NCBI RefSeq assembly: GCF_050920415.1
Contig: NZ_CP169309.1
Source: Escherichia coli
GTDB taxonomy: Bacteria > Pseudomonadota > Gammaproteobacteria > Enterobacterales > Enterobacteriaceae
Direction: 5' to 3' (one strand)
Length of the DNA: 64,000 nt
Position 1 is the first letter of the stretch, and the number at the start of each line of letters is the position of its first letter. The translations under genes and the position numbers were made by a program. The notes below the pieces were generated by a model. That model did not search any database, was not told where the DNA came from, and worked only from the letters and a program-made list of their open reading frames with translations. Positions 1,869 through 39,942 of the stretch are shown here, piece after piece.

Positions 1869-3185
1869 TTACGCGAATGCCGCCATGCTGGCTTTCATGG
1901 TGTACACCTCAACCAGCGTGTTGGTGTACTCCTCCAGATAACGGTCGTAGTTGGCGTTATAGGTATCGGTAAGCTGATCGCCTTCGTCCTGAATTTTGCT
2001 CATCTGATCGTCAATGTTCTGCTGGCGCAGGGTGATGATGCCGTTGCTGGAGTCCGTGTAGGTGTTAATCAGATCGTCCATCTGTGCCACCATGCTGTTG
2101 TCGCCAACGAAAATAGAGGTCAGACCGTCAGGATTTTTCGCCATTTCGTCGTTGAACTGGTCGGAGTCAATCTGTAAGTGGCCGTGAGAATCAAGCGTGA
2201 TGCCATAGTCAACAATCGACACCCCGTTGTAGCTGGCATGGGCGATATCATCGAGCTGGTTCGCCAGTGAGCTGAGTCCGGCATCACCCGCAAATACCCC
2301 GGCGCTGGTACTGTCATCACCGTGGGTGGTCAATGAATCAACCGTATCAATCAAGGTGTTATAGGCATCAACAAAGGTCTGTACTTTCTCCTGGCTGGCG
2401 CTGGAATCTTCGCTGATGTTAAAGGTAGTGAGATCGCTGTCAGAATCGCTGACTTCGGTAAAAGTCATGGTGACGCCGGGGATCACATCATCAAAGGTGT
2501 TGCTGCTATTGGTGATGGCGGGCCCCGTGGCACTGCCGAGATGAATAATCGCGTCCTGAGCGGAGGAAACATCCGTAGCAACGGGCGCGCTGGCGCTGTC
2601 GTTGCTGGCATCATGCCCCGTTACGCTCACCGAAAACGCGCTCTGCGCCCCGGTGCTATCCGAGGTGAGCATAATGGTGGTGGTGCCATCGGTTTTTACC
2701 AGTGCCGCTGAAACGCCGGGGTTATCGTCAGAGTCGTTAATCGCATTCACCAGCTCGCTGGCGTCGATAAAACCGTCGCCGTCACCGTTCTGATCCGCCG
2801 CCGCCAGGTCGATATCCATGGTGCTGTCGCCCATCGTCAGCTCGAAGGTGCCGGTAGCGGAAAAGGCGTCGTCGCCCATACTGAACGTGGTCTGCTGCCC
2901 CTGCGCCAGTTGCTCAACGAAAAATGAGTAGCTTCCCGCCTGTGCCTGCGAGTTAGCGGAAACGGTCGCTGAGTCATTATTGCTGGTGGCGGCAAATGTT
3001 ACCGGGCCGTCGGTATCGCTGTTCAGCGCATCGACGGCACTTTGAAAGTCGCTCAACGCCGAGCTGAGCGTATCCAGGCCGCTGCTTTCGGCATCCAGCT
3101 CCGTTTGCTTCTCCTGCAAATTTGCCGCCTGAGTGGCGACATCCGCATAAGCGATTTCCTGGGCAATAGTTCTTGGGTTAATCAT
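1869..3185 (-). CDS. lafB: Flagellar filament cap protein FliD-like (HAP2)
   Basis: 438 aa; N-terminal coiled-coil, Ser/Thr/Asp-rich central region and C-terminal helical segment typical of FliD; sits between the flagellin and FliS-like genes. Confidence 0.85.
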   Translation of the reverse strand: MINPRTIAQEIAYADVATQAANLQEKQTELDAESSGLDTLSSALSDFQSAVDALNSDTDGPVTFAATSNNDSATVSANSQAQAGSYSFFVEQLAQGQQTTFSMGDDAFSATGTFELTMGDSTMDIDLAAADQNGDGDGFIDASELVNAINDSDDNPGVSAALVKTDGTTTIMLTSDSTGAQSAFSVSVTGHDASNDSASAPVATDVSSAQDAIIHLGSATGPAITNSSNTFDDVIPGVTMTFTEVSDSDSDLTTFNISEDSSASQEKVQTFVDAYNTLIDTVDSLTTHGDDSTSAGVFAGDAGLSSLANQLDDIAHASYNGVSIVDYGITLDSHGHLQIDSDQFNDEMAKNPDGLTSIFVGDNSMVAQMDDLINTYTDSSNGIITLRQQNIDDQMSKIQDEGDQLTDTYNANYDRYLEEYTNTLVEVYTMKASMAAFA

Positions 3186-3364
3186 TGATGACTCCGGTTA
3201 ACGATGTCAGGTTATTGGCAAAAGGCGTGCCAATATTTTTTATGTTAATAATCAATAATTTGAAAAATGGGCGGAAAGCGTGTTTCCGGTTCGGCGGAAA
3301 AGTGCCTGCCGCAAAAAGCACAACACCGCCCGCAGGCGGTATTGAGACTGATGACAAACGCAAC

Positions 3365-3466
3365 ACTGCCTGATGCGCTGCGCTTATCAGGCCTACAAGG
3401 TTTCTGCAATATATTGAATTTGCAATATTTTGTAGGCCGGATAAGGCGTTCACGCCGCATCCGGCA
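3365..3466. repeat. BIME: two inverted REP palindromes downstream of the flagellin gene
   Basis: gcctgatgcgctgcgcttatcaggcctac … gtaggccggataaggcgttcacgccgcatccggca; classic E. coli REP sequence. A near-identical pair with the same linker occurs at 24050-24152. Confidence 0.75.
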
Positions 3467-5775: not shown

Positions 5776-6753
5776 TTACCCCAATAAATTCCTCACCGTC
5801 TGGCTGGAAATTCGCGCCTGACCGTTCACCGCCTGCAATAAAACCTGATAGTTATGATTGGCGCTGTCGAGCACACCGCCGAGATTTTCCGACGCCTGTA
5901 CCGCACTTTCTGTCTGCGGGAAGCGGGACATGCCGTCGATCAACTGGCGGGCCTTTTCCTGCTGCACAGCCATCTTCGCGCGCTGCTGATTAATGTTTTC
6001 TAACGTCTGAGAAATCCCCGCCCCGCCCTGTTGCAGGCTTTGAGCTAACCGCTCAGCCTCAGAGGGTTCGGCAAAGGTTTTTAGTGGCATAAACGCTGAT
6101 TTATCGCCATCGGTGCGCACGCTTAACGTGCGTTCAATGTCAGGCCACTGTTTTTCGGTGGTGGAGAAGCTGATGCCATCCGCTTGCTGATGCAGCTGCA
6201 CGCCTACGCGGCGCAGGGCGTTGGTCAGCCGTGTCTGGTACTGCCCGGCGTTATCATCCTCAGACAGCATCACCGCCGAAAGCTGGGTCTGCCGCCCGTC
6301 AGAAACGCTGAACATCCGCGTTCCCAGTGTGGGGTTGTTGACGAGATTCGCCAAATCCGGCGAGTGAAAGGTCACCCGCGCTTCCCCCTGCAACACCGGC
6401 TGCAACTGGCGGTCCACCGCGCCGCCGGAAAGTGCGGTGCGTTTGTCCAGCATCTGCGTGAGCGCCGTACTCTGCGCCTGCCCGCCCTTACGCAGGCTGT
6501 GACGATAATCGAGCAACTGCTGTTCCAGTTGCCCGAGATAGTGATCCGCCTGCTGCAAGGTGGTGAGCTGGTCGTTAAGCTGCACGCTGTAACGCTGCGG
6601 GCGAGTGGTAATCAGCGGCGAGGCCGGATATTCACTCGCCGTCGCCGGGAGCTTTTGCCGCACCGCCTGAGTGGGCGCAACGGTTGACGACGATACCGCA
6701 GCGCTATGCGCACCGCCGGTGGCGAGTGATGAAGATGTAAGTCCGACCTGCAT
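5776..6753 (-). CDS. lafW: Uncharacterised Flag-2 protein (LafW position)
   Basis: 325-aa ORF between the FlgL-like gene and the regulator; Gln/Leu/Ala-rich helical composition; no motif I can assign. Gene symbol is by position only. Confidence 0.45.
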   Translation of the reverse strand: MQVGLTSSSLATGGAHSAAVSSSTVAPTQAVRQKLPATASEYPASPLITTRPQRYSVQLNDQLTTLQQADHYLGQLEQQLLDYRHSLRKGGQAQSTALTQMLDKRTALSGGAVDRQLQPVLQGEARVTFHSPDLANLVNNPTLGTRMFSVSDGRQTQLSAVMLSEDDNAGQYQTRLTNALRRVGVQLHQQADGISFSTTEKQWPDIERTLSVRTDGDKSAFMPLKTFAEPSEAERLAQSLQQGGAGISQTLENINQQRAKMAVQQEKARQLIDGMSRFPQTESAVQASENLGGVLDSANHNYQVLLQAVNGQARISSQTVRNLLG

Positions 6754-9070: not shown

Positions 9071-9192
9071 CCCCCTCACCCTAACCCTCTCCCTGAGGGA
9101 GAGGGGACCGATCGAGCACGGTATTGAACAGGGTGCCGGTTTTCTCCCTCTCCCTGTGGGAGAGGGCCGGGGTGAGGGCATCAGCGCGCACC
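9071..9192 (+). repeat. Copy A of a ~120-bp composite palindromic intergenic repeat
   Basis: ccccctcaccctaaccctctccctgagggagagggg … ttttctccctctccctgtgggagagggccggggtgagggc; two hairpin modules. Nearly identical to copy B (11346-11470) and inverted copy C (21429-21545). Confidence 0.8.
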
Positions 9193-11345: not shown

Positions 11346-11470
11346 CCCCCTCACCCTAACCCTCTCCCTCAAGGGAGAGGGGACTGACCTGTGCGCGTTG
11401 TTACATTGTGCACCGCTTTTCTCCCTCTCCCTGTGGGAGAGGGCCGGGGTGAGGGCATCAGGCCGCACCG
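11346..11470 (+). repeat. Copy B of the composite palindromic intergenic repeat
   Basis: ccccctcaccctaaccctctccctcaagggagagggg … ttttctccctctccctgtgggagagggccggggtgagggc; lies between the flgH start and flgG stop. Confidence 0.8.
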
Positions 11471-15769: not shown

Positions 15770-15799
15770 ACGCTAAGCAATCGCTGTGCCAATTTTTAA

Positions 15800-16558
15800 G
15801 TGACTGATGAGAAAGGGTTTATGAGGTTTCAATTTTGCAGGCGGAAGTTGTATTTCCTCCTGGCGCTGGCCTTACCGGGCTACGCCGCCGTCCATCCCGT
15901 GCAACATAGCGCGCGGGAACAAATCAACGCCCAGGTGCTGAATGCCGCGAGCCAGCAGATTGAATCGCTGGCGCAACAGCGGCAGTGGCATGACTATCGC
16001 TACACCTTTAAGGTCTACATTCCCTCGCAGATTGCGACCGCCGCGCCCTGCGCTACGGCCCCCGGCGTCACGCTGACGTCGCCTGCGGAAATCGCTCTCA
16101 ACCGGATGAACTTCACCGTCAGTTGCCCGCAAAGCTGGCAGATGAACGTTGCGGTGCGCCCGGATGTTCTGGTGCCGGTGGTGATGGCGAAGTCACTGGT
16201 TGCCCGCGATACGCCGCTCACGGCAAATGATGTGGAGCTGAAGCCCTACAACGTCAGCGCCCAGCGGCGGGATGTGCTGATGGATCTCAATGAAGCGATT
16301 GGTTTAAGCAGCAAACATGCCCTGCAACCAGGCAGGCCGCTTACCAAAGAAGAACTGGTTTCGCCAGTGCTGATCGAGCGCGATCAGCCGGTGATGATTG
16401 TTTACCAGAGCGCGGGGATCACCGCCTCGATGCCCGGCGTGGCGCTGAAAAATGGTCGCAAAGGGGAAATGGTGAAAGTACGTAACGCCAGCAGCCAGCG
16501 GGTCATTAGCGCGATGGTGGCCGAAAGCGGCGTGGTGACAACGGTAAGCGCGGAGTAA
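15800..16558 (+). CDS. lfgA: P-ring assembly chaperone FlgA-like
   Basis: 252 aa with signal peptide (…LLALALPGYAAVHP…), divergent from flgB. Alternative start at 15821. Confidence 0.8.
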   Translation: MTDEKGFMRFQFCRRKLYFLLALALPGYAAVHPVQHSAREQINAQVLNAASQQIESLAQQRQWHDYRYTFKVYIPSQIATAAPCATAPGVTLTSPAEIALNRMNFTVSCPQSWQMNVAVRPDVLVPVVMAKSLVARDTPLTANDVELKPYNVSAQRRDVLMDLNEAIGLSSKHALQPGRPLTKEELVSPVLIERDQPVMIVYQSAGITASMPGVALKNGRKGEMVKVRNASSQRVISAMVAESGVVTTVSAE

Positions 16559-16704: not shown

Positions 16705-18171
16705 ATGAGTGATACTGTATCACCAATAAGACCTATGGGGGATGCTATGTCTGAATTTGAATTACTCGTGAAAGATCTTCTTTTAAAATCAGAAGAAGAC
16801 GAGAAAAAGCGACAAGAAAAAGATCGAGAATTAATTTCAAAGGTCCTTGAAATCTATGATCAAAAATATGTTGCAGAACTCTTACGAAAACTAGGAAAAA
16901 ATGAATGGAGCAGAGAAACACTTAACCGTTGGATAAATGGTAAGTGCAATCCTAAGCAATTAACTTCTGCGGAGGAAACTTTACTCCGCAAGATGCTTCC
17001 AGAACCTCCTGAACATCATCCTAACTACACATTTCGTTTTATTGATTTATTCGCAGGGATTGGTGGTATTCGTAAAGGTTTCGAAAACATTGGTGGACAG
17101 TGTGTTTTTACCAGCGAATGGAATAAAGAAGCGGTAAGAACCTACAAAGCTAATTGGTTTAATGATGAACTAAATCATAAATTTAATCTTGATATACGAG
17201 AAGTCACTTTAAGTGATAGAGATGATGTTTCCGAAGTAGAAGCCTATAATCATATAGACAAAAATATTCCAGATCATGATGTCCTTCTGGCCGGTTTTCC
17301 ATGTCAGCCCTTTAGTCTGGCTGGGGTAAGCAAGAAAAACTCTCTGGGGCGTGCACATGGTTTTGAATGTGAGGCACAAGGAACACTATTTTTTGATGTC
17401 GCTCGGATTATTAAATCAAAAAAACCAGCTATTTTTGTGCTTGAGAATGTGAAAAACCTTAAAAGTCATGATAAAGGTAAGACTTTTAAAGTCATCATGG
17501 AAACACTCGATGAATTAGGATATGAAGTCGCCGATGCTGGTGTTACTGGCTCAGATGATCCCAAAATTATAGATGGAAAACATTTTTTACCCCAACATCG
17601 TGAGCGTATAGTGTTGGTAGGATTTCGTAGAGATCTGAATATTCACAAGGATTTCACGTTACGAAACATTAACCGCTTTTACCCTCAAAACAGGCCAACA
17701 TTTGGTGAATTATTAGATCATGATGTTGACGATAAATATATTTTGACTCCAAGGTTATGGGAATATCTTTACAATTATGCAAAAAAACATGCAGCAAAAG
17801 GCAATGGGTTTGGTTTTGGTTTAGTGGATCCTAAAAATCCAGATAGTATCGCAAGGACTCTGTCTGCTCGTTATCATAAAGATGGCTCTGAAATATTGAT
17901 TGATCGTGGCTGGGATAAGGCTGTCGGTGAAATTGACTTTAGTAATCCAGCGAATCAAGAGCATCGTCCAAGAAGACTGACACCTCACGAATGTGCCAGG
18001 CTAATGGGTTTTGAAAAACCAGGGGGAAGACCTTTTAGAATACCTGTATCGGATACACAAGCCTATAGACAATTTGGGAACTCAGTTGTTGTTCCAGTAT
18101 TTGAAGCTGTAGCAAGATTACTAGAACCATATATACAAAAGGCAGTCAATATGCATATTATTAACGATTAA
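16705..18171 (+). CDS. DNA (cytosine-5)-methyltransferase, Dcm/M.EcoRII-like (predicted CCWGG specificity)
   Basis: C5-MTase motifs read directly: [11 protein letters not shown] (motif I), [11 protein letters not shown] (motif IV), ENVKNL (motif VI), [10 protein letters not shown] (motif X). Overall layout closely parallels E. coli Dcm as I recall it. AT-rich gene. Confidence 0.9.
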
Positions 18172-18257: not shown

Positions 18258-19463
18258 TTATACAAAATCTTCATAAAGCGTTATTAACTGTGTAATAAAA
18301 CCATCTAATGTTAATATTTCCTCCCTGATTTCCTCCGGGTATTTTTTATGAAGAGGGGAAGGTACAACCAAGGTGACACCTTCAGCTCTCATTTCGTTAA
18401 ATTGAGCAACAGAGACACCCTCTTGCAAGGTAAACAAATATATCTTGTTGATTTTATTTGCTTCATTAAGCGCCTGTCGCCACCGATCCTTACATGTTGT
18501 TTTTACAGCAAGCATACGGAGTTTTTCTCTTGGAAAGTGATCATCATGGTAAGCTGCCGCTGATGGGAAAAGAAAATCGGGTTTCTTTTTTCCTTCAGTA
18601 ATACATTGAGTAGCAAAATGATGCAGTCCATGCTCAATAAAAATTTGCTCAAGATGTAGCTCCAGTGATTTCCCGGCTCGAGATTTTCTTCTATTACTAA
18701 CAGAGTTAGCCATAGCTATAAAATCATCTACAGAACCAAATCCTTGACGGATGATGTCCAGTACGTGAATTTCTTCAACCATTAGAAAGAGATCATATTC
18801 AATACGGCGGCGTTCTAAAAGTTGGTCATCTGGACTGGTTACGCCTGTTGGGTAATAACCTGCCGCATATTGGATAATATCTAAGCCAGAAGGAAAACTA
18901 TGTTTCCAGCTTTCCGGAATAACATATTCCTTTTGAGAGATTTTTGGCCTTGATGCGAGTACACCAAGTATTTCACTGGCAGGCCCAAACATTAAAGTTC
19001 CTGGAATGATCTCCCCAACAGCTGATTCCAGTACATCCTCTTCTTCTGGGCTTACACAAACCCATACATCAACACTTTTGCTGTCTCTCCCAGGCTCATG
19101 TTCAAACGCAAGCACAGACAAAGCACCTGTATTTTCCGGATCTTGTAGGGGACTGCCAGCCCCCCACCGAGTGATACGTTTTTCATTTCTTGTTTGCCCG
19201 AAATACTTATTATTGTAGTAAATAGCGCGAACCTCACTGTCTACACATTCATGAGAGGAATAAGTTGCGCGCAATAAAACCGAAGGATTTTTTTCTGACG
19301 TATGATCTATAGATGGGAAAAGTTCACCGACGATACCGGAAGGGATATATACCCCCACTTGATGCCCTCCTGTTGCACCAGTGTCGTTTGCTGAAAGACG
19401 TTTGATATAGAGATAATTGTTACCACCGACCTTATCAAGCAGCCAATCTTGTAATCCTGACAT
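18258..19463 (-). CDS. Type II restriction endonuclease, EcoRII-like
   Basis: 401 aa, convergent with the Dcm-like MTase. N-terminal …YIKRLSANDTGATGGHQVGVYIP… and overall length match my recollection of R.EcoRII (~400 aa, two-domain). Not verified by alignment. Confidence 0.75.
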   Translation of the reverse strand: MSGLQDWLLDKVGGNNYLYIKRLSANDTGATGGHQVGVYIPSGIVGELFPSIDHTSEKNPSVLLRATYSSHECVDSEVRAIYYNNKYFGQTRNEKRITRWGAGSPLQDPENTGALSVLAFEHEPGRDSKSVDVWVCVSPEEEDVLESAVGEIIPGTLMFGPASEILGVLASRPKISQKEYVIPESWKHSFPSGLDIIQYAAGYYPTGVTSPDDQLLERRRIEYDLFLMVEEIHVLDIIRQGFGSVDDFIAMANSVSNRRKSRAGKSLELHLEQIFIEHGLHHFATQCITEGKKKPDFLFPSAAAYHDDHFPREKLRMLAVKTTCKDRWRQALNEANKINKIYLFTLQEGVSVAQFNEMRAEGVTLVVPSPLHKKYPEEIREEILTLDGFITQLITLYEDFV

Positions 19464-19633
19464 AAGACATCCTTATTTTTGCATAGTATCCGATTCAGAT
19501 TTTTCCACATATCCATCAGAACGACCAGAACCAACATATCTGAACAAAAAGTAAATATGCGATAACGATTAAAGTTTTGCCGCCTGTTAACCGCTTTACC
19601 GGAGTAACCACCCAATACCGAGACGAGGTTGCG

Positions 19634-19912
19634 ATGAAAATCACCCCGACGATGCCAGGCAATCGCCCGACAGCCACAACGGCAGGCTCCAGCCAGCCGC
19701 GTAAAAGTACGGCGACCACCACCACGACGCTGAGTGCCGACGACATTACCCAGGCGGGATTGCAGTCTGCCCAGCAAACGCTGAACGACCAGCAAGAGAG
19801 CGATATCGACAGCGATAAAGTGGCGCAAATGCAGGCGATGCTGGCGTCCGGCAGCCTGCAAGTGGACACCGAACAGTTAGCCAGCGACATGCTGAGTTTT
19901 TTCCAGAACTAA
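19634..19912 (+). CDS. lfgM: Anti-sigma-28 factor FlgM-like
   Basis: Start at internal Met (MKITPTMPGN…), 92 aa; Thr/Ser-rich N-terminus and C-terminal …MQAMLASGSLQVDTEQLASDM… typical of FlgM. Confidence 0.8.
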   Translation: MKITPTMPGNRPTATTAGSSQPRKSTATTTTTLSADDITQAGLQSAQQTLNDQQESDIDSDKVAQMQAMLASGSLQVDTEQLASDMLSFFQN

Positions 19913-19924
19913 GAGGCCGATGAA

Positions 19925-20353
19925 GTGAGTATCCGGTTACAACAGGTGAAGGCGTTGTTGCAGGGCATTCGTGACGATGACGCGCTGTACGATTCCCTGC
20001 GCGAACTTCTCCAGCGTCAGCGGATCTGCATGATTCGCCGCGCCAGTGAAGAGTTGCTGGCGGTAAACGACGAGATAACGCAGCACTATGAGCAGTTGCA
20101 TGGACATAGCCATCAGCGCCATAGCCTGCTGAAAATGCTCGGTGTTAGCGTCAATCGTGACGGTCTGGCGCAGGTGTTTGCCTGGCTTCCGGCGGTACAA
20201 AAAGCGGCAGCACAACAGTTGTGGCAACGCCTGGAGCAAAAAACGGAACGCTGCAAAGCCTATAACGATAAAAACGGCGAGCTGTTGATTCGTCAGTATG
20301 AATTTATTCAGTCTTTTTTAGGCAGCGAAGCGGATTTTCTGTATCAGGAATAA
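19925..20353 (+). CDS. lfgN: Flagellar chaperone FlgN-like
   Basis: 142 aa helical protein directly downstream of flgM; GTG start; FlgN-like composition and position. Confidence 0.7.
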   Translation: MSIRLQQVKALLQGIRDDDALYDSLRELLQRQRICMIRRASEELLAVNDEITQHYEQLHGHSHQRHSLLKMLGVSVNRDGLAQVFAWLPAVQKAAAQQLWQRLEQKTERCKAYNDKNGELLIRQYEFIQSFLGSEADFLYQE

Positions 20354-20440
20354 CGCGAATACCTTCCCCATAGCGGAAACGGATTTTCCGCCTGATTTCC
20401 AATCCTTTGTTTTTGATTAAAAAAATTCCCGGCACGCTTA

Positions 20441-21409
20441 TTGCACATCCTGCACAGCATTAAAGACTGGAAGCCACCTATGAGTTTTATTGAATGTTAC
20501 GAACCGGAATATGCGCGCAATTTTATGGCGCAATATCCCGATTCGCCTTTATACGTCCGCAAGGTGTGGAAGAATGAGATTCGCCAGAGCCTGGCATTGA
20601 CCGATATTGCCAGTTGCAAAGCAGTGCTCAACAATGCCAGGGCCTTTGAATTACAGCTTACCTATCGCCCTGTGGAAGAAAATGCCGCAGCGCTATCTGC
20701 GCGCGATGCGATAGTAAACCAGATAATTTTGAGCACCCTCACGCTCCCGGATTTAACCCCAGAGCTTTCACTGTATGCCGTCGGGATTTTGCTCTCCCGC
20801 GCCAGTAAAATGCCGGGCAGAGACGGCGACACTCTCGCCCGGCTGACAGCACTGCCGCAGGCGCTGGCCGATCACGCACAAAAAGGCACGTTACAGGCAC
20901 AGTTCGCACAGCTACCGCCTGTGCCACAGCTGGCGCGCCAACTGGTGACGCTGCTCGGGAGTTTTGCGTTTGACTGGTCGATTCTGCCGAAAAGCCCGCG
21001 CAAAGCCTCACTGCCGTTGCAGGTTACCTTGCTGACGCTGCACGACGCCAACAGCGAAGCCCTGTTGCAGCAGCAGCTTCAGACACAGTGGCAAACTACC
21101 TGGCAACAGCATTTTGCCACCGCGCCGTGGATGATGCGTAACTGGCTAATTTACCGGGTTTATCACGATGTGATTGGCCAGGCAGACGGGGCGGATTATT
21201 TCCCGCTGGTGTGCGATTTTTACCTCATCCGCACGTTAATCAGTTTATGGACGCTGGATGATTCACCGCTGCGGCAGGAGGATATTTTCGCCCTCTTCGC
21301 GGTGTTTGAACGCTGGCGAACCAGTGAAAATGCCGTGCTGATTCGCCAGCAAATTCAGTCATTATGTGCCGCCGACCCGCTGCTTTCAGCGTTTTCGTTG
21401 CTGACGTGA
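20441..21409 (+). CDS. Hypothetical protein (GC-typical), function unknown
   Basis: 322-aa ORF downstream of flgN (alternative start 20480, MSFIECYEP…); no motif I can assign. Confidence 0.5.
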   Translation: MHILHSIKDWKPPMSFIECYEPEYARNFMAQYPDSPLYVRKVWKNEIRQSLALTDIASCKAVLNNARAFELQLTYRPVEENAAALSARDAIVNQIILSTLTLPDLTPELSLYAVGILLSRASKMPGRDGDTLARLTALPQALADHAQKGTLQAQFAQLPPVPQLARQLVTLLGSFAFDWSILPKSPRKASLPLQVTLLTLHDANSEALLQQQLQTQWQTTWQQHFATAPWMMRNWLIYRVYHDVIGQADGADYFPLVCDFYLIRTLISLWTLDDSPLRQEDIFALFAVFERWRTSENAVLIRQQIQSLCAADPLLSAFSLLT

Positions 21410-21428
21410 GTCGCTCTGTGCGCGCTTT

Positions 21429-21545
21429 GCCCTCACCCCGGCCCTCTCCCACAGGGAGAGGGAGAAACCCTGCGCCCAATTCAGCACCGCGCTCGATCGG
21501 TCCCCTCGCCCCTTCGGGGAGAGGGTTAGGGTGAGGGACATCAGC
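21429..21545 (-). repeat. Copy C (inverted) of the composite palindromic intergenic repeat
   Basis: gccctcaccccggccctctcccacagggagagggagaaa … ccttcggggagagggttagggtgaggg; reverse complement aligns with copies A and B. Confidence 0.8.
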
Positions 21546-21596
21546 GCGCGCATTCAGCACCTCCATCACATTCACCCACTAACTCACCCAAACACC

Positions 21597-24041
21597 ATGC
21601 CAACACCAAGCATCATCAAAACACTCGCCACCCACCGCGAAAAACCGTTCGTCAGCGTCGTCACGCCAACATGGAACCGCGGCGCATTCCTCCCGTACCT
21701 GCTCTATATGTACCGCTATCAGGACTACCCGGCAGACCGCCGCGAACTGGTCATCCTTGACGACTCGCCGCAAAGCCATCAACACATCATCGACCGCCTG
21801 ACCAATGGCACGCCGGAAGCCTTTAACATCCGCTACATCCATCACCCGGAAAAACTGCCGCTGGGAAAAAAACGCAATATGCTCAACGAACTGGCGAGCG
21901 GCGAATATATCCTCTGCATGGATGACGACGACTACTACCCGGCAGATAAAATCTCTTACACCATCGCCATGATGCAAAAACACCGGGCGCTGATCTCCGG
22001 TTCCGACCAGATCCCCATCTGGTACAGCCATATCAACCGCATCTTTCAAAGCCGCAGCTTTGGCCCGCGTAACATCCTCAACGGCACCTTTTGTTATCAC
22101 CGTAACTACCTGAAAAAGCACCGTTACAATGACGATTGCAATTTAGGCGAAGAGAAAAGTTTCACCGACAATTTCAGCGTAAACCCGCTGCAACTGCCCG
22201 GCGAGCGCACGATTTTGTGTATTTCGCATAGCCACAACACCTTTGATAAAGACTTTATTCTCGGGGCCAGCACGCCAGTAAACGCGGCGCTTACGGATAT
22301 CGTCACCGATCCGCTGCTCCGCAATGCTTATCTGAGTCTGCATAACGCCACGCATCACCAGGGGATCAACCATCAGGCGATCTATCAGATCGTTCTGCTG
22401 AATCTGGATAAACGCCCGGATCGTTTACGGCAGATCCGTGAAGAGCTGGCATTGCTGCATATTCCGCCTGAAAAAATTACCCGCCTTGCCGCCTGTGAAG
22501 ATGAAAACGGTCAACGGGGCCGCCGCCTGTCGCACTTGCAGGCGCTACGCCTGGCGCAACAGCACGGCTGGCAAAACTATCTGCTGCTGGAAGATGACGC
22601 GGTTATTCTCAAGCAGGAGAAACATATTCAGGTGCTGAACACGCTGCTGGCGAGCCTGGCGAAAATTCCCTGGCAGGTGATGATCCTCGGAGGCGAAATT
22701 TCGCAAGGAACAATGCTAAAAAGCCTGCCGGGGCTGGTGCACGCGCAGGACTGCCGCAAAGTGTGCGCTTATCTGGTGAACAGCCGGTACTACCCACAAC
22801 TGGCGCAGCAGATGAGTAACGATGAGCACTCGCTGGAAGACGGCTGGCAGCCACTGCTGCGTGCCGACAAATGGCTGGCCTGTTACCCGAGCCTTAGTTA
22901 TCAGCGACCGGGCTTTAGCGATATCGAGAAAAAAGCGACTGATAACATTAACCACTACTTCAATAAGTTACCCGTAGCCACCAAGCCATCTACATTACCT
23001 ATCGCCGACACCATCGGCTTTTTAATGGAAACCTCATTCCACTACGCGCTCTATCGCCCAATCATCACCGCTCTACAGGCGCAGGGGCAGAGCTGCACGC
23101 TGGTGATCAACGACCGCGTGTTTAAACCGTTTCTGGATGAAATGCTGGAGACGCTAAAAACCATCGACGATCCGCAGCTCAAAGGTATGCGCTTGTCTGA
23201 GATGCAGGCACACGGTCAGCGGGTGAAATGCCTGGTCAGCCCCTACCACACGCCCGCGCTCAATGGCCTGGCAGCGGTGAACATCCGCGCTATGTACGGC
23301 TTAGCCAAAGAAACGTGGAACCACGCCGACTGGAACCGTTTTTATCAGCGCATTTTGTGTTATAGCCACTACAGTCAGCAGGCGCTGGCGCATTTCGGCA
23401 GCGCAAAAGTGGTCGGCAATCCACGCTTCGACGCCTGGCATAACGGCACGTTCGACCGTGCGTTGCCGGAAAATATCCAACCAGATTACCGTAAACCTAC
23501 GGTGCTCTACGCCCCAACATTTGGCGCATTAAGCTCCCTGCCCCACTGGGCAGAAAAATTGGGCCGCTTAAGCGGTGATGTGAACCTGATTTGCAAACTG
23601 CACCACGGTACCTGCTCGCGCCCGGAAGAAGCCGCATCGCTGACCCTGGCACGCAGGCATTTAAAGCAGAGCACCGACTCCGCCCGTCACACGCTGGCGA
23701 TGCTGGCAAAAGCCGATTACGTGCTCACCGATAACAGCGGCTTTATTTTCGATGCTATCCACGTTGATAAGCGGGTGATCCTGCTCGACTTTCCGGGCAT
23801 GACGGAACTGCTCGACGGTGAGAAAAGTTATTCCACACCGGAGAGCGCCGACCAGCGAATCCGCGAAATATTACCGGTGGCTCATGATATGGCTGAGCTG
23901 CGTTACTTATTGTCAGAGGCGTTTGACTGGGGGGCGGTACAGGCGCGGCTTACGGAGATTCGCCATCACTATTGTGACGCGTTTATGGATGGCAAGGCGG
24001 GAGAACGGGCGGCGATGGTGGTTGTGGAGGCATTGGGGTAA
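21597..24041 (+). CDS. Large multidomain glycosyltransferase (GT2-like N-terminus, GT25-like centre, TagB/TagF-like C-terminus); candidate flagellin-modification enzyme
   Basis: N-terminus …VSVVTPTWNRGAFLPYLL…ILDDSP… (GT-A fold); central …LLNLDKRPDRL…LLEDDAVI… (GT25-like); C-terminus …YAPTFG…KLHH…VLTDNSGFIFDA… resembling CDP-glycerol glycerophosphotransferases. Start taken at ATG 21597; the ORF extends back to 21531 across repeat C. Confidence 0.65.
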   Translation: MPTPSIIKTLATHREKPFVSVVTPTWNRGAFLPYLLYMYRYQDYPADRRELVILDDSPQSHQHIIDRLTNGTPEAFNIRYIHHPEKLPLGKKRNMLNELASGEYILCMDDDDYYPADKISYTIAMMQKHRALISGSDQIPIWYSHINRIFQSRSFGPRNILNGTFCYHRNYLKKHRYNDDCNLGEEKSFTDNFSVNPLQLPGERTILCISHSHNTFDKDFILGASTPVNAALTDIVTDPLLRNAYLSLHNATHHQGINHQAIYQIVLLNLDKRPDRLRQIREELALLHIPPEKITRLAACEDENGQRGRRLSHLQALRLAQQHGWQNYLLLEDDAVILKQEKHIQVLNTLLASLAKIPWQVMILGGEISQGTMLKSLPGLVHAQDCRKVCAYLVNSRYYPQLAQQMSNDEHSLEDGWQPLLRADKWLACYPSLSYQRPGFSDIEKKATDNINHYFNKLPVATKPSTLPIADTIGFLMETSFHYALYRPIITALQAQGQSCTLVINDRVFKPFLDEMLETLKTIDDPQLKGMRLSEMQAHGQRVKCLVSPYHTPALNGLAAVNIRAMYGLAKETWNHADWNRFYQRILCYSHYSQQALAHFGSAKVVGNPRFDAWHNGTFDRALPENIQPDYRKPTVLYAPTFGALSSLPHWAEKLGRLSGDVNLICKLHHGTCSRPEEAASLTLARRHLKQSTDSARHTLAMLAKADYVLTDNSGFIFDAIHVDKRVILLDFPGMTELLDGEKSYSTPESADQRIREILPVAHDMAELRYLLSEAFDWGAVQARLTEIRHHYCDAFMDGKAGERAAMVVVEALG

Positions 24042-24367: not shown

Positions 24368-25189
24368 ATGACTTCTGATAAAAAAGTAACTTCCGGTACG
24401 ACAAGCCAGAAACAAAACAACATTGTCACTCAAAAAATATCACGCCAGAAGGAATTGTTTCTATTATTTTGGGTTGATGAGTCCGATGATAGCCGACGTT
24501 CTATTTTTGAAGAAGCATGTCTGACGCGTTATTTCAATATCCTTTATTCCCCCGAGTATAAAAAAGAAACACAGATAGTTTATCATTTATCAATTAACAC
24601 ATTTAATCAAATCAAAGAAATATTAGAAATCTTTATAAACAAGAATGGAGGTAAAACTAAAGCAAAGGTTAAAGAAGTCAGTTTATTCTCACATGGGGGG
24701 CCAATTCATGGTCCTACAACCTCAAACTCTATAAATACACCTTCCGTGCCTAAATACCCACAACAAATGGACATATCCGGAGGATGGGATTCAATTGATT
24801 TTAACTGGTCAAACAATGCTATGTTTGTTATGTATGGTTGTCGCACTAGTTATGCAAGTGATGATTCAGGACAAGGTTTTGCCAGTAAATTATCCCTATT
24901 AGATAATTTTAAGGACGTGAATGTCTGGGGTCAAACAGAAAGTACTTATCCATCTTATTTCCCAGATATCAGGACAACGTCGATTATGAGGTCAATAAAT
25001 ATAGGTTGGTCTTTTTCACCAACATATATGGTTGCCAATTCTGAAGGTCAAGGATGGGATGCATTATTCCCGGATAATCGAAATCCATTAAAAGCTCTCC
25101 CTATGCAGTGTTATAATAATGGGACATTGATTTTAACCTGCGATCAAAGCAATTTTAATGATCACCGGAAGAATAAATCAAATGATTAG
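24368..25189 (+). CDS. Hypothetical protein with a caspase-like (clan CD peptidase-type) His…Cys dyad; AT-rich
   Basis: 273 aa; hydrophobic strand + SHG (VSLFSHGGP, His109) and, 49 residues later, hydrophobic strand + GC (AMFVMYGCRT, Cys158), the arrangement of caspase/CHAT-type catalytic dyads. Inferred by eye only. No signal peptide. Confidence 0.45.
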   Translation: MTSDKKVTSGTTSQKQNNIVTQKISRQKELFLLFWVDESDDSRRSIFEEACLTRYFNILYSPEYKKETQIVYHLSINTFNQIKEILEIFINKNGGKTKAKVKEVSLFSHGGPIHGPTTSNSINTPSVPKYPQQMDISGGWDSIDFNWSNNAMFVMYGCRTSYASDDSGQGFASKLSLLDNFKDVNVWGQTESTYPSYFPDIRTTSIMRSINIGWSFSPTYMVANSEGQGWDALFPDNRNPLKALPMQCYNNGTLILTCDQSNFNDHRKNKSND

Positions 25190-25721
25190 CATTGTATTGA
25201 GAAGCTTTATTTTATTATTCATAATAATAGTGTATCCGGATTATAATAAAAACCCACCTGCCTTTGAAGTATATGGGGAAAATGACATACTTAAGGATAT
25301 GGTTATTAATATGAAAACTTATAGATACCATAGTAAGGAAAACTCTTCCCCCACAGCTATAGTGCAAACCATCCTTTTTAAAGGAAATATACAGCAAGTT
25401 TTTGAAAGCAATGACATGGGTGGTGCGAGCTTCTTTTTTTCTTATAATAATAAGGTTGAAACGCTGGTAACAGACGCTTTCTTTTTAAATAAAAAATTAG
25501 ACAAACTGCATGATGCAAATATTTTTGAGGTTATAAAGCATAAGGAAAACATCGTTATTAGATATTACAAGTGCAAAATTGAATATATGCAAAGAGAAAA
25601 ATTTATCGAAATAGAGATATCAACAAACAAAAATAGTTATTTTAACAAGAATGGAATAAAACAAAAAGATACAAATAAATATAACACATATTTCTTCAAT
25701 TACTTTGAGTCTCAAAAATAA
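25158..25721 (+). CDS. Hypothetical small membrane-anchored protein, partner of the upstream gene; AT-rich
   Basis: 187 aa; N-terminal hydrophobic segment (ISIVLRSFILLFIIIVY), Lys/Asn-rich remainder; overlaps the upstream gene (alternative start 25182 gives an 8-nt overlap). Confidence 0.45.
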   Translation: MITGRINQMISIVLRSFILLFIIIVYPDYNKNPPAFEVYGENDILKDMVINMKTYRYHSKENSSPTAIVQTILFKGNIQQVFESNDMGGASFFFSYNNKVETLVTDAFFLNKKLDKLHDANIFEVIKHKENIVIRYYKCKIEYMQREKFIEIEISTNKNSYFNKNGIKQKDTNKYNTYFFNYFESQK

Positions 25722-25724
25722 ATT

Positions 25725-26129
25725 TTATTTTGTCATGCGCGCCCTCCTAATCACCTCAATAATCCCCGTCGTCGACACCGACGGCGTGCGGGGGAAATAG
25801 ACCACCTCACAAATATACGCGAAGCTATCAAACTTCCCTGCCCAGTCATCGCCCATCACCAAAACATCCGCACTGTACCCCCGCAGATATTCCGCTTTCT
25901 GCGCCAGCGATTCCTCGAGAAATACGCCATCCACGCACGCCAGCCCGGCGATAATCGCCATGCGGTCATCCTGAGGGTAAACCGGTGCCCTGCCCTTTTT
26001 GGCAATATTTAAGGCGTCGGACGACACGCCAACCAGCAGCCGTTCGCCCAGCGTGCGGGCGCGTTGTAAAAGGCGCAGATGACCGACATGAAACACATCG
26101 AAGGTGCCGAAGGTGATGACCGTTTTCAT
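25725..26129 (-). CDS. Cytidylyltransferase, TagD/glycerol-3-phosphate cytidylyltransferase-like
   Basis: Start at internal Met (MKTVITFGTFDVFHVGHLRLL…); HxGH nucleotidyltransferase motif; 134 aa; begins 3 nt after the fliJ stop. Confidence 0.75.
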   Translation of the reverse strand: MKTVITFGTFDVFHVGHLRLLQRARTLGERLLVGVSSDALNIAKKGRAPVYPQDDRMAIIAGLACVDGVFLEESLAQKAEYLRGYSADVLVMGDDWAGKFDSFAYICEVVYFPRTPSVSTTGIIEVIRRARMTK

Positions 26130-26131
26130 GG

Positions 26132-26566
26132 CTACTCCGCTAATTTGTGCCGTAGCCAGCACTGAACGGCGATGTCATCCACCGCTTTTTGCGCTTTCGC
26201 CGTGGCACTTTCTTGCTGCTCGCGGCGTTTGTCATCCAGCGTCAGGGCCACCACTTTCTCTTCGCATGCCGCCGCCGTCAGGTTTTTCTGCATTCGCGTA
26301 GCCTTGATGTTAGCCAGCGTTTTTTCCTGCTCCTGCCAGGCGATCACTTTGCGCAAGGTGCCTTTGTAGCCGCTGACGTTTTTCAGCGATTCCACCGACG
26401 CCGCCGCGCCCGCAGATGTTTTCTCCACCAGGTAGCCTAACGCTTTGATATTGTTGTCATAGCCCGCGCAAATCTGTTTTTGCTTTGCCAGCTCGACGGT
26501 TTTGTCTTTGACCGATTTATCCCGCAGGCGCTGCAATTGCGCGAGGGTGTCGATGATTTGTCGCAT
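26132..26566 (-). CDS. lfiJ: Flagellar export protein FliJ-like
   Basis: 144-aa coiled-coil protein immediately downstream of the FliI-like ATPase gene. Confidence 0.7.
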   Translation of the reverse strand: MRQIIDTLAQLQRLRDKSVKDKTVELAKQKQICAGYDNNIKALGYLVEKTSAGAAASVESLKNVSGYKGTLRKVIAWQEQEKTLANIKATRMQKNLTAAACEEKVVALTLDDKRREQQESATAKAQKAVDDIAVQCWLRHKLAE

Positions 26567-31607: not shown

Positions 31608-32594
31608 TCAGGAGAAAACTTCGATACCGTGCTTGCGCATGGAGGCCAGTCGATAGCGCAGGGCGCGCGGGGTAATGCCTAACAAGTCGGCGATTTTGCT
31701 GCGGTTGCCCTGATATTTACGCATCAGGTCGGCGATATATTGATACTGCGCGCTTCGTCCGTGCTGGCCTAAATCACCGGTTTCGGCAATGTGGACGGCG
31801 GGCTGAACAGGCCATTGCAGATCGCTGTGGTCTGCAATATCGGTGTCCGGCAGGCCTAATGCATCCGGGTAAATTACGCCGTCGCGATTTAAAATCATTC
31901 CCCGCTGAATGGCGTTTTCCAGTTGACGCACGTTACCGGGCCAGCGGTAATTAAGCAGCGCGCGGCGGGTGGATTCGGACAGGGTGATATTTTTCACCAG
32001 TACCGTTGAGTATTTTTTAATAAATGACTCTGCCAGCGGAATAATATCGTTCAGGCGTTCACGCAGTGGCGGCATGGTAATAGGGATAACCGCCAGACGA
32101 TAATAGAGATCTTCACGAAAACGTCCGGCGGCAACTTCCTGCTCCAGGTTTTTATTGGTGCAGGCAATCAGGCGAAAATTGAGTTTGATTTGTCGGTTGC
32201 TGCCTAATCGCTCAACCTGTTGTTCCTGCAACACGCATAATATTTTGGCCTGTAGCGCCAGCGGCATTTCACCAATTTCATCGAGTAATAAGGTGCCGTT
32301 ATTTGCCAGTTCCATTTTTCCTGGCACGCTGGCAATTGCGCCGGTAAATGCACCTTTGTCGTAGCCAAATAACGTCGATTCCAGCATATTTTCCGGGATC
32401 GCCGCGCAGTTCACGCCGATATAGGGCGCATTATCATTTTCACCAAAGGCTACGGTGTGAATATATTTCGCCACGCACTCTTTCCCCGCGCCGGTTTCGC
32501 CCTGAATCAGGACCGGCACGTTAAAGGCGGCGACACGCTTTGCCAGAGTAAAAGCGTTTATGCTGGAGGCGGCAGATGCAATAAGTTCAGACAT
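31608..32594 (-). CDS. lafK: Sigma-54-dependent transcriptional activator LafK-like (AAA+ domain plus C-terminal HTH; no N-terminal receiver domain)
   Basis: 328 aa; Walker A GETGAGKE, GAFTGA sigma-54 contact motif, Fis-type HTH at the C-terminus. An in-frame stop 25 codons upstream of the ATG excludes an N-terminal extension. Confidence 0.85.
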   Translation of the reverse strand: MSELIASAASSINAFTLAKRVAAFNVPVLIQGETGAGKECVAKYIHTVAFGENDNAPYIGVNCAAIPENMLESTLFGYDKGAFTGAIASVPGKMELANNGTLLLDEIGEMPLALQAKILCVLQEQQVERLGSNRQIKLNFRLIACTNKNLEQEVAAGRFREDLYYRLAVIPITMPPLRERLNDIIPLAESFIKKYSTVLVKNITLSESTRRALLNYRWPGNVRQLENAIQRGMILNRDGVIYPDALGLPDTDIADHSDLQWPVQPAVHIAETGDLGQHGRSAQYQYIADLMRKYQGNRSKIADLLGITPRALRYRLASMRKHGIEVFS

Positions 32595-39302: not shown

Positions 39303-39593
39303 TGGATTGATAGTATGATTAAGGTCAGCGCGCTAGGCTCTCGTCATAGAAAAACATTCGACGATGTAATGACGGAGCCGCCAAAATCTGGAATTAAATG
39401 GGATGATGTTGTTGCTCTCATTAAAGCGGTGGGTGGATCAATAAAAAATAACAACGGCTCCAGACGAAAATTTCAGATTGGAACGACCAAATTCAGCACA
39501 CATGAGCCGCATCCAAAGAATGTGATGGATAAAGGCGCAGTAGCAGGTCTTAAGGAGTGGTTTGTTAACTGTGTAGGGGTAGATTATGAATAA
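39294..39593 (+). CDS. HicA-like toxin (mRNA interferase family), putative
   Basis: 99-aa ORF (alternative start 39315); C-terminal half (…NGSRRKFQIGTTKFSTHEPHPKNVMDKGAVAGLKEW…) resembles the HicA pattern as I recall it; 8-nt overlap with the downstream gene. Confidence 0.45.
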   Translation: MTSWIDSMIKVSALGSRHRKTFDDVMTEPPKSGIKWDDVVALIKAVGGSIKNNNGSRRKFQIGTTKFSTHEPHPKNVMDKGAVAGLKEWFVNCVGVDYE

Positions 39594-39942
39594 AGCATCG
39601 AACATTATCACAATTAAAGGTCAACCAGCCGCAGTGACATTTGAAGCCGATATCAACGCATTTCGCGGCAAGTTCCTCAATGTAAACGGTTATTGTGACT
39701 TTGTAGCCACAAGTATTGAGGCATTATATCGTGAAGGCGAAAGCGCTCTGGATGAGTGGATGGCGGATTGTGAAGAGGACGGTATTGCCCCTTTTCGTGA
39801 AGAAGAAGAGCAAAAACGCCTGACGCTTCGTGTGCCGCATCACATCGATTCGCGGCTGACCATCGTCGCCAGACAACATTCCATTTCAAAAAACCAGCTC
39901 ATTATTGATGTCTTAGAACGTGAGTTTTCAGCCCAGATGTAA
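39586..39942 (+). CDS. HicB-like antitoxin with C-terminal ribbon-helix-helix, putative
   Basis: 118 aa; N-terminal HicB/UPF0150-like region and C-terminal RHH-like segment (…KRLTLRVPHHIDSRLTIVARQHSISKNQLIIDVLEREF…). Confidence 0.55.
   Translation: MNKASNIITIKGQPAAVTFEADINAFRGKFLNVNGYCDFVATSIEALYREGESALDEWMADCEEDGIAPFREEEEQKRLTLRVPHHIDSRLTIVARQHSISKNQLIIDVLEREFSAQM

Follow-up and report, generated by a model that had tools for sequence, protein, structure and literature searches.

FliB of Salmonella, a flagellin lysine-N-methyltransferase, is S-adenosylmethionine (SAM)-dependent and contains one [4Fe-4S] cluster, sensitive to oxygen and held by a CX4CX3CC motif (Wang et al. 2021, PMC8598068). 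In the C17A/C22A/C26A/C27A mutant of this enzyme the [4Fe-4S] cluster and all methylation were lost (PMC8598068). FliB-like proteins "previously termed LafV" (LafV1-LafV10) have been described from variable region 1 (VR1) of flag-2 loci, between the lfiJ and lfgN clusters; lafV was present in 342 of 592 flag-2 loci, and from its presence a common methylation of flag-2 flagellin was deduced (De Maayer et al. 2020, PMC6993521). The LafV types in the supplement of that study comprise 228-318 amino acids (aa), most of them 303-318, and had no conserved-domain match (PMC6993521). A different flagellin-modifying system is known from Caulobacter, where the glycosyltransferase FlmG requires a separate helical flagellin-binding domain of ~313 aa, built of tetratricopeptide repeats (TPR), and where flagellin is not bound or modified by the glycosyltransferase domain on its own (PMC7591256). 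Here, the lafV gene at positions 20480-21409 (plus strand) of a 64,000-nucleotide (nt) stretch of Escherichia coli DNA (RefSeq assembly GCF_050920415.1, contig NZ_CP169309.1; hereafter the window) was analysed. Its product lacks the iron-sulfur part of FliB, and it may act as a non-methylating partner of the glycosyltransferase encoded directly downstream.

The assignment to lafV is made with high confidence: the gene is very probably lafV, a member of the Flag-2 locus for lateral flagella in E. coli, and codes for a FliB relative without the iron-sulfur cluster part. It matches the published description of LafV in VR1, since it is located between flgN and fliJ (26132-26566, minus strand), codes for 309 aa and is FliB-like, and the 40 kb around it form a complete-looking Flag-2 locus. 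According to the later Flag-2 literature, the name lafV goes back to Ren et al. 2005. In RefSeq, near-identical copies are labelled either "hypothetical protein" or "lysine-N-methylase". The string 'lafV' is also used in papers on Vibrio parahaemolyticus, for what we take to be an unrelated gene. Among 5426 complete E. coli genomes lafV was found in 1278, and in 1277 of these at least 80% of the gene was covered. The gene name, the likeness to FliB and the Pfam domain were already known; apparently new with respect to the sources are the missing iron-sulfur motif, the obligate pairing with a GT2 glycosyltransferase and a promoter architecture that is common to lafV, flgB and fliD. A first-pass annotation of the window had left the gene unassigned and without a motif that could be placed. 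Both statements are replaced by the name from the Flag-2 literature and by the FliB_C domain together with the NCBIfam FliB match. Its idea of a locus-specific accessory factor is supported, because a gene of VR1 that occurs in 342 of 592 flag-2 loci is accessory and not core. Of the two functions it had offered, flagellin modification is favoured and a role in export is unsupported.

The relationship to FliB was established at the level of sequence, profile and predicted structure. LafV matched the NCBIfam FliB equivalog NF038110 with 43.8 bits (E 2.3e-11) over profile positions 107-364 of 373, which is below the curated cutoff of 85 bits that applies to the full 373-position profile. BLASTP of LafV against a 401-aa FliB gave 24% identity (E 2e-13; LafV 9-285 on FliB 96-376), and hhalign of a LafV alignment against a FliB alignment gave a probability of 100% and E 1.4e-41 (LafV 14-309 on FliB 101-401). 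For the Pfam family FliB_C (PF27117) a precomputed match exists on a 100%-identical protein (P0001), and the family is recorded for most of 92 homologues, including all near-full-length ones. A Pfam scan of the open reading frame (ORF) returned no match; the model set that was scanned does not contain PF27117, so this result is not evidence of a missing family. In the Pfam and NCBIfam scans no Rossmann or SET motif was detected, and a sequence search of the PDB with LafV returned nothing below E 1.5.

A profile search over 1.84 billion representatives yielded 154 LafV relatives with two architectures. The short relatives of ~290-327 aa are aligned from residue 1, and in the long relatives of ~390-450 aa the match begins near residue 107-113. 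The long relatives score 157-293 bits on NF038110 over positions 1-372 and are thus bona fide FliB proteins. When 59 long and 32 short representatives were aligned with MAFFT, eight cysteine columns proved to be 100% conserved in the long forms (59 of 59): C17, C22, C26 and C27 of the CX4CX3CC motif and, in the numbering of the 401-aa FliB, C79, C88, C103 and C125. LafV has alanine in the first of these columns (C17), gaps in the following six and Asp42 in the eighth, so that the motif and all four further cysteines are missing. All 11 residues that are invariant among the long forms lie within their first 125 residues in the FliB alignment. The short and long forms have the motif NYLxYRLYHDxFP in common. 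LafV has no counterpart of FliB residues ~14-107, and its first ~13 residues still align with the FliB N-terminus, which indicates an internal deletion and not a 5′ truncation.

The AlphaFold predictions fit this picture. The LafV model, with a predicted local distance difference test score (pLDDT) of 90.8, has strands at residues 3-9, 25-29, 33-38 and 58-64 followed by ~13 helices; the model of the 401-aa FliB (pLDDT 91.0) has strands at 2-9, 108-113, 116-121 and 141-148 followed by a similar helical body. FliB residues 14-107 form an extra cysteine-rich subdomain that is inserted relative to the LafV model. LafV is thus homologous to residues ~101-401 of the Salmonella enterica protein plus its first beta-strand and has the same predicted topology of a sheet and a helical body. 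The gene of each protein belongs to a flagellar locus, and flagellin in the cytoplasm is the presumed target of both.

Since the catalytic centre of FliB is exactly the part that is missing, LafV does not qualify as a FliB-type methylase and is, as far as its residues predict, unable to methylate by the FliB mechanism. It could still be a true flagellin lysine-N-methyltransferase if the FliB_C part itself carried out the chemistry with SAM, either free of a cluster or with a cluster supplied by a partner. The clear homology to FliB, the motif common to short and long forms and the strong purifying selection described below would suit such an enzyme, and 'lysine-N-methylase' is the label in many records and the function named by RefSeq and by De Maayer et al. 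Nevertheless, this explanation appears unlikely to us: the eight invariant cysteines are gone, the invariant residues of true FliB proteins are concentrated in the missing part, the FliB mutant in only four of these cysteines had neither cluster nor activity, the profile score is about half of the cutoff, a Rossmann or SET motif is lacking, and no small protein with a cysteine cluster is annotated in the locus. The literature on LafV1-LafV10, in which lysine methylation is predicted, predates the finding that FliB has an iron-sulfur cluster, and neither the missing iron-sulfur region of LafV nor its pairing with GT2 is remarked on there (PMC6993521). About a quarter of the complete E. coli genomes and many genomes of Citrobacter, Enterobacter and related genera encode a methylase-annotated protein without the indispensable part of FliB. 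What supports this label, and likewise the methylation of flag-2 flagellin predicted in the literature, is homology to the wrong half of the enzyme. If LafV is a pseudo-enzyme, the 'lysine-N-methylase' labels and the assumed common methylation of flag-2 flagellin would be wrong.

The most LafV-like of the long forms, P0120 (L006 8001-9218; 405 aa), has all eight cysteines and is not encoded in a flagellar locus. On one side of its gene is a radical-SAM gene (epmB-like) adjacent to efp, on the other a 548-aa gene with a Cpn10 (groES-like) gene behind it. This context suggests that FliB-like iron-sulfur methylases with substrates other than flagellin exist.

Homologues of 309-315 aa, down to 39-43% identity, were found in Escherichia, Pseudocitrobacter, Citrobacter, Enterobacter, Phytobacter and Leminorella. 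The ratio of nonsynonymous to synonymous substitution rates (dN/dS) of lafV was 0.10-0.16, similar to that of flgA and of the glycosyltransferase gene, which indicates purifying selection. By this pattern of substitution lafV is a functional, selected gene. Across loci the LafV proteins are 39-56% identical compared to 51-71% for the glycosyltransferase, so LafV diverges faster. This faster evolution relative to its neighbours, the loss of the iron-sulfur subdomain and the fact that Flag-2 is often silent in E. coli are what could be expected of an inactive, decaying fliB remnant that has lost its catalytic domain. However, the low dN/dS, the intact frame, a length that is retained between genera and within 1277 E. 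coli genomes, the confident fold prediction and the conserved promoter all speak against decay. A pseudogene or relic is largely refuted by dN/dS and conservation, and we regard it as very improbable.

The functional context of lafV was analysed in a genome scan of the cysteine-less clade, comprising 24 species-level loci from GTDB genomes, while more distant forms were sampled individually. An orthologue of the 814-aa glycosyltransferase was encoded directly after lafV and on the same strand in all 24 loci, flgN was located upstream in 23 of them, and a gene for a TagD-like cytidylyltransferase was detected in 18. Among six sampled loci with distant short forms (24-30% identity), five had a GT2 gene of 468-502 codons immediately upstream, which often overlaps the FliB_C gene or sits only a few bases away; in the sixth (P0130) an upstream gene, its identity untested, overlaps and a cytidylyltransferase gene follows. 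The five distant GT2 proteins are orthologous to the N-terminal half of the glycosyltransferase in the window, with 42-48% identity over its residues ~9-458, and TagD-like and TagF-like genes are often present beside the distant short forms as well. These distant loci are flag-2-like, but there the short form is located behind fliJ, and gene order and orientation differ from the window. An adjacency of LafV and GT2 that survives both sequence divergence and rearrangement is good evidence of joint function, and across 24-97% protein identity and reordered genes it defines a conserved flagellin-modification module. Wherever the neighbours were informative (30 contexts), the short form occurred only in flagellar loci. 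In contrast to LafV, which adjoins a glycosyltransferase in Flag-2, one long FliB is encoded between fliC and fliA, in the classical arrangement fliD-fliS-fliT / fliC-fliB-fliA, and no glycosyltransferase gene is present.

The glycosyltransferase of the window (21597-24041, plus strand; PF00535, E 2.2e-17) is given as 814 or 836 aa long. It contains a GT2 domain at residues 42-156, a GT25-like segment at 255-449 and a weak Glyphos_transf match at 627-750, and it looks like a fusion of GT2, the GT25-like segment and a weakly TagF-like C-terminus. In other loci the corresponding parts are encoded by separate genes: L033 has a 478-aa GT2 and a 414-aa Glyphos_transf protein, in the gene order GT2, FliB_C, cytidylyltransferase and CDP-glycerol (cytidine diphosphate glycerol) glycerophosphotransferase, and L034 has a 468-aa GT2 and a 220-aa GT25-like protein. 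The TagD-like, glycerol-3-phosphate cytidylyltransferase-like gene of the window is located at 25725-26129 (minus strand; PF01467; TIGR01518 with E 2e-32, below its cutoff). The fused glycosyltransferase together with this gene hints at a flagellin modification that contains glycerol phosphate. A physical link of FliB_C with sugar transfer was seen in P0229 (L036 391-2202), a metagenomic 603-aa fusion of a cysteine-less FliB_C with the N-terminal part of a PM0188-type sialyltransferase.

LafV might itself belong to the pathway that makes the glycan or polyol-phosphate, as an enzyme or cofactor that acts on the sugar or on the lipid or nucleotide donor, or as an allosteric activator of the glycosyltransferase, without any contact with flagellin. 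The co-occurrence with GT2 plus the TagD-like cytidylyltransferase and the TagF-like transferase would fit, as would the translational coupling or overlap of the FliB_C gene with its neighbours in several loci. Nonetheless, the only characterised relative acts on flagellin, no signature of a catalytic family was found, and the short form is restricted to flagellar loci, so that this explanation, too, is an unlikely one.

The reading that we favour, with a confidence of even odds or slightly less, is that LafV is a non-methylating partner of the glycosyltransferase in the modification of lateral flagellin. LafV consists of the C-terminal, mostly helical FliB body of ~300 residues and the first beta-strand, with the cysteine subdomain gone. 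The location of the FliB chemistry in the missing subdomain, the retention of the variable body, the selection on the gene and the adjacency to the glycosyltransferase together suggest that LafV supplies recognition or a scaffold. Because the glycosyltransferase has no recognisable flagellin-binding domain, it would be LafV that supplies the recognition of flagellin. In such a mechanism lafV would be transcribed with the downstream glycosyltransferase gene from its own sigma-54 (LafK-type) promoter, and LafV would hence be made before, or independently of, the sigma-28-dependent late genes. In the cytoplasm it would serve as the flagellin-recognising or scaffolding partner of the glycosyltransferase; the TagD-like cytidylyltransferase would supply a CDP-activated polyol, and the glycosyltransferase with its TagF-like domain would attach a glycan or polyol-phosphate to the lateral flagellin LafA before the latter is exported. 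The pairing with GT2 thus leads to a concrete hypothesis, LafV as a substrate-recognition subunit.

A functional analogy for such a subunit is the TPR domain of FlmG, likewise a helical module of ~310 residues, which gives substrate specificity and is made before flagellin export. A separate sigma-54 unit would fit a modification machine that is available before flagellin synthesis begins, as reported for FlmG. The two modules differ in that there is no sequence relationship and no detected fold relationship between them, LafV showing no TPR signature, and in that the module is fused to the glycosyltransferase in FlmG but is a separate polypeptide in LafV, whose flagellin binding is putative. 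A wider and more tentative generalisation, on which we place somewhat less than middling confidence, is that FliB_C-only proteins as a class are pseudo-enzymes. Derived from a [4Fe-4S]/SAM flagellin methylase but without its catalytic subdomain, they would have been co-opted to target flagellin as a subunit of a machine of the GT2/TagD/TagF type, which would attach a glycan or a group containing glycerol phosphate to lateral flagellin.

Several points weigh against the proposed partnership. The ties of LafV to flagellin, to the glycosyltransferase and to modification are ones that we infer from sequence, as are the dependence on LafK and the modification chemistry, and substrate binding by FliB_C is deduced from the placement of conservation and of the cluster. 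The adjacency means a functional linkage without fixing the role of LafV in the pathway, and the sialyltransferase fusion P0229 lies on a single low-coverage contig; a search for a second fusion of FliB_C with a sialyltransferase returned only the query. Outside the Escherichia-Citrobacter clade, ~72% of the short forms keep a CxCxxC motif and one further cysteine. Such forms (for example P0102, P0106, P0112 and P0130) resemble LafV in the short architecture, the flagellar context, 24-30% identity and, except for P0130, the GT2 neighbour; they differ in having kept four cysteines, namely CxCxxC and the equivalent of FliB Cys125, none of which is present in the Escherichia-Citrobacter-Enterobacter-Leminorella clade with LafV of the window. 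The clade of the window is the fully cysteine-less end of the short-form series, the CxCxxC forms could bind a metal, and metal binding and enzymatic activity may have persisted in the ancestral short form. Furthermore, E. coli ST131 strain EC958 did not express Flag-2 under laboratory conditions (PMC4637896), and this silence limits the immediate biological impact of the findings.

The transcriptional organization of lafV was analysed in the 126-nt spacer between flgN and lafV. It holds a sigma-54-type promoter, CGGCACGCTTATTGCA (20430-20445, plus strand; -24 GG and -12 GC), located 49 nt 5′ of the lafV ATG and identified by its match to the consensus and its conservation; the element, with its core at 20431-20444, has one mismatch to the sigma-54 consensus TGGCACG-N4-TTGCW. 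The palindrome CGGAAACGGATTTTCCG, an inverted repeat CGGAAA-N5-TTTCCG at 20374-20390, is located 56 nt upstream of the -24 element and, by the conservation of its half-sites, is a candidate binding site of an enhancer-binding protein (LafK). When nine spacers from four genera were aligned, the elements GGCA.GC...ATTGC and the GGAA/TTCC half-sites were invariant, while the sequence between them drifts. A GGCA(C/T)-N5-TTGC core was present 49-111 nt 5′ of lafV in 22 of the 24 loci, each time with GGAA-N7-TTCC 56-67 nt upstream of it; in the two loci without the core, lafV starts only ~27-30 nt behind flgN.

The exact sigma-54 core occurs three times in the 64-kb window, facing lafV, flgB and fliD, and each copy has an exact palindrome 56-67 nt upstream. 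The core and palindrome before flgB are located at 15776-15791 and 15842-15858, those before fliD at 3217-3232 and 3272-3288, in both cases with the core on the minus strand. Simulated windows contained 0.007 such pairs on average, and none of 300 reached three. The pair near fliD lies inside a 91-aa ORF (3178-3453; hypothetical in RefSeq), which may therefore be spurious. A lafK-like gene for a sigma-54-dependent activator with a sigma-54 interaction domain is located at 31608-32594 (minus strand) and is the presumed regulator of the lafV promoter. The palindrome would be the activator site, presumably bound by LafK, and the combination of inverted repeat and sigma-54 core offers a candidate LafK operator. 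As a terminator of flgN the palindrome was rejected: its half-sites are conserved with a variable spacer, and the same repeat precedes the flgB and fliD cores, where no gene ends. A terminator scan found no convincing candidate after flgN, a sigma-70 promoter scan of 19400-21700 gave 2 sites compared to 1.5 expected, and a check by eye for TAAA-N15-GCCGATAA upstream of lafV gave no convincing match to a sigma-28 promoter.

This promoter architecture suggests that lafV and the glycosyltransferase gene form a separate LafK/sigma-54 unit rather than being reached by read-through from flgMN, and it makes doubtful the co-transcription with late flagellar genes that the first-pass annotation had considered probable. 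It also bears on the possibility that LafV has nothing to do with flagellin modification and is an export chaperone, a gatekeeper or a regulator of late genes. The position after flgN in 23 of 24 loci and the helical AlphaFold model would be in line with such a role. However, lafV has its own conserved promoter motif; in the distant loci fliJ and GT2 precede the short form, the GT2 neighbour staying where flgN does not; and lafV is missing from ~42% of flag-2 loci and hence not needed for assembly. We consider such a role quite improbable. Partnership of LafV with the glycosyltransferase remains the favoured interpretation.

The ORF listing of the window gives a 322-aa frame with a TTG start at 20441-21409 (plus strand), and this frame had been taken as the gene. 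The frame exists, and its location on the flgM/flgN strand between flgN and the glycosyltransferase gene and its host-like composition were confirmed, the GC content of 0.56-0.57 being that of the neighbouring flagellar genes; its start was revised. Translation of lafV almost certainly starts at ATG 20480, giving 309 aa, and not at TTG 20441. The RefSeq annotation of a near-identical record starts at the same ATG, the N-terminus MSxIECYEPEF is common to 14 homologues down to 43% identity, and GGAAG is located 8 nt 5′ of the ATG. The start at TTG 20441 was rejected on account of the homologue N-termini and of the overlap with the sigma-54-type promoter; located inside the core, this TTG would precede the expected transcription start near 20455. 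The coding sequence of the FliB_C-only protein is accordingly set at 20480-21409 on the basis of the ORF, the RefSeq start and homology, and the extension at 20441-20479 is probably promoter and 5′ untranslated region, not coding sequence.

Upstream of lafV, and on its strand, are flgM (lfgM; 19634-19912; PF04316), which codes for the anti-sigma-28 factor, and flgN (lfgN; 19925-20353; PF05130, E 5.6e-20). Downstream, the spacer between lafV and the glycosyltransferase gene contains a dispersed GC-rich palindromic repeat (21430-21537; CCCTCACCCCGGCCCTCTCCC ... GGGAGAGGGTTAGGGTGAGGG) with 21-nt arms of 86% complementarity, and further copies are located at 9087-9164 and 11425-11441. The same spacer has only 23-100 nt in Citrobacter, Enterobacter and Leminorella. 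Of 5426 E. coli genomes, 5425 matched part of a 4.6-kb query from the window, with a median of 9 places per genome, and these multiple matches are probably due to the dispersed repeat. Over 4.6 kb the window has 99.9% identity with E. coli NZ_CP169399.1 (strain MFDS1022581). Compared with that record, the coordinates left of ~7 kb are shifted by +102 nt relative to the mapping from 13 kb on. The shift implies an indel of ~102 nt between the two sequences, located somewhere in the interval from ~6.8 to 13 kb; the flgK-flgJ or flgG-flgH spacers, which bear repeats, are possible sites.

Insertions of low GC content are located on both sides of lafV (0.34-0.44 at 16.7-19.5 kb and 0.29-0.35 at 24.3-25.7 kb). 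The first, between flgA and flgM, is an EcoRII-type restriction-modification pair with a methylase (16747-18171, plus strand; PF00145/PF18284) and an endonuclease (18258-19463, minus strand; EcoRII-N/EcoRII-C); in other E. coli the gap between flgA and flgM is only ~80 nt. This insertion separates flgMN from the upstream flgA and may alter the expression of flgMN. The second consists of two overlapping hypothetical genes (24368-25189 and 25182-25721, plus strand) between the genes of the glycosyltransferase and the cytidylyltransferase, with a weak match to DUF4347 (E 1.5e-4) as the sole match. In strain AZ147 the pair is missing and the cytidylyltransferase gene directly follows the glycosyltransferase gene; the two genes look like a recent cargo insertion in VR1. 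A 325-aa ORF of lafV-like size at 5776-6753 (minus strand), located in VR2 between flgL and a winged-helix regulator, had no Pfam match. At the edge of the Flag-2 locus, right after flhA, the RefSeq annotation of the near-identical record places a hicA/hicB toxin-antitoxin pair at 39315-39942.

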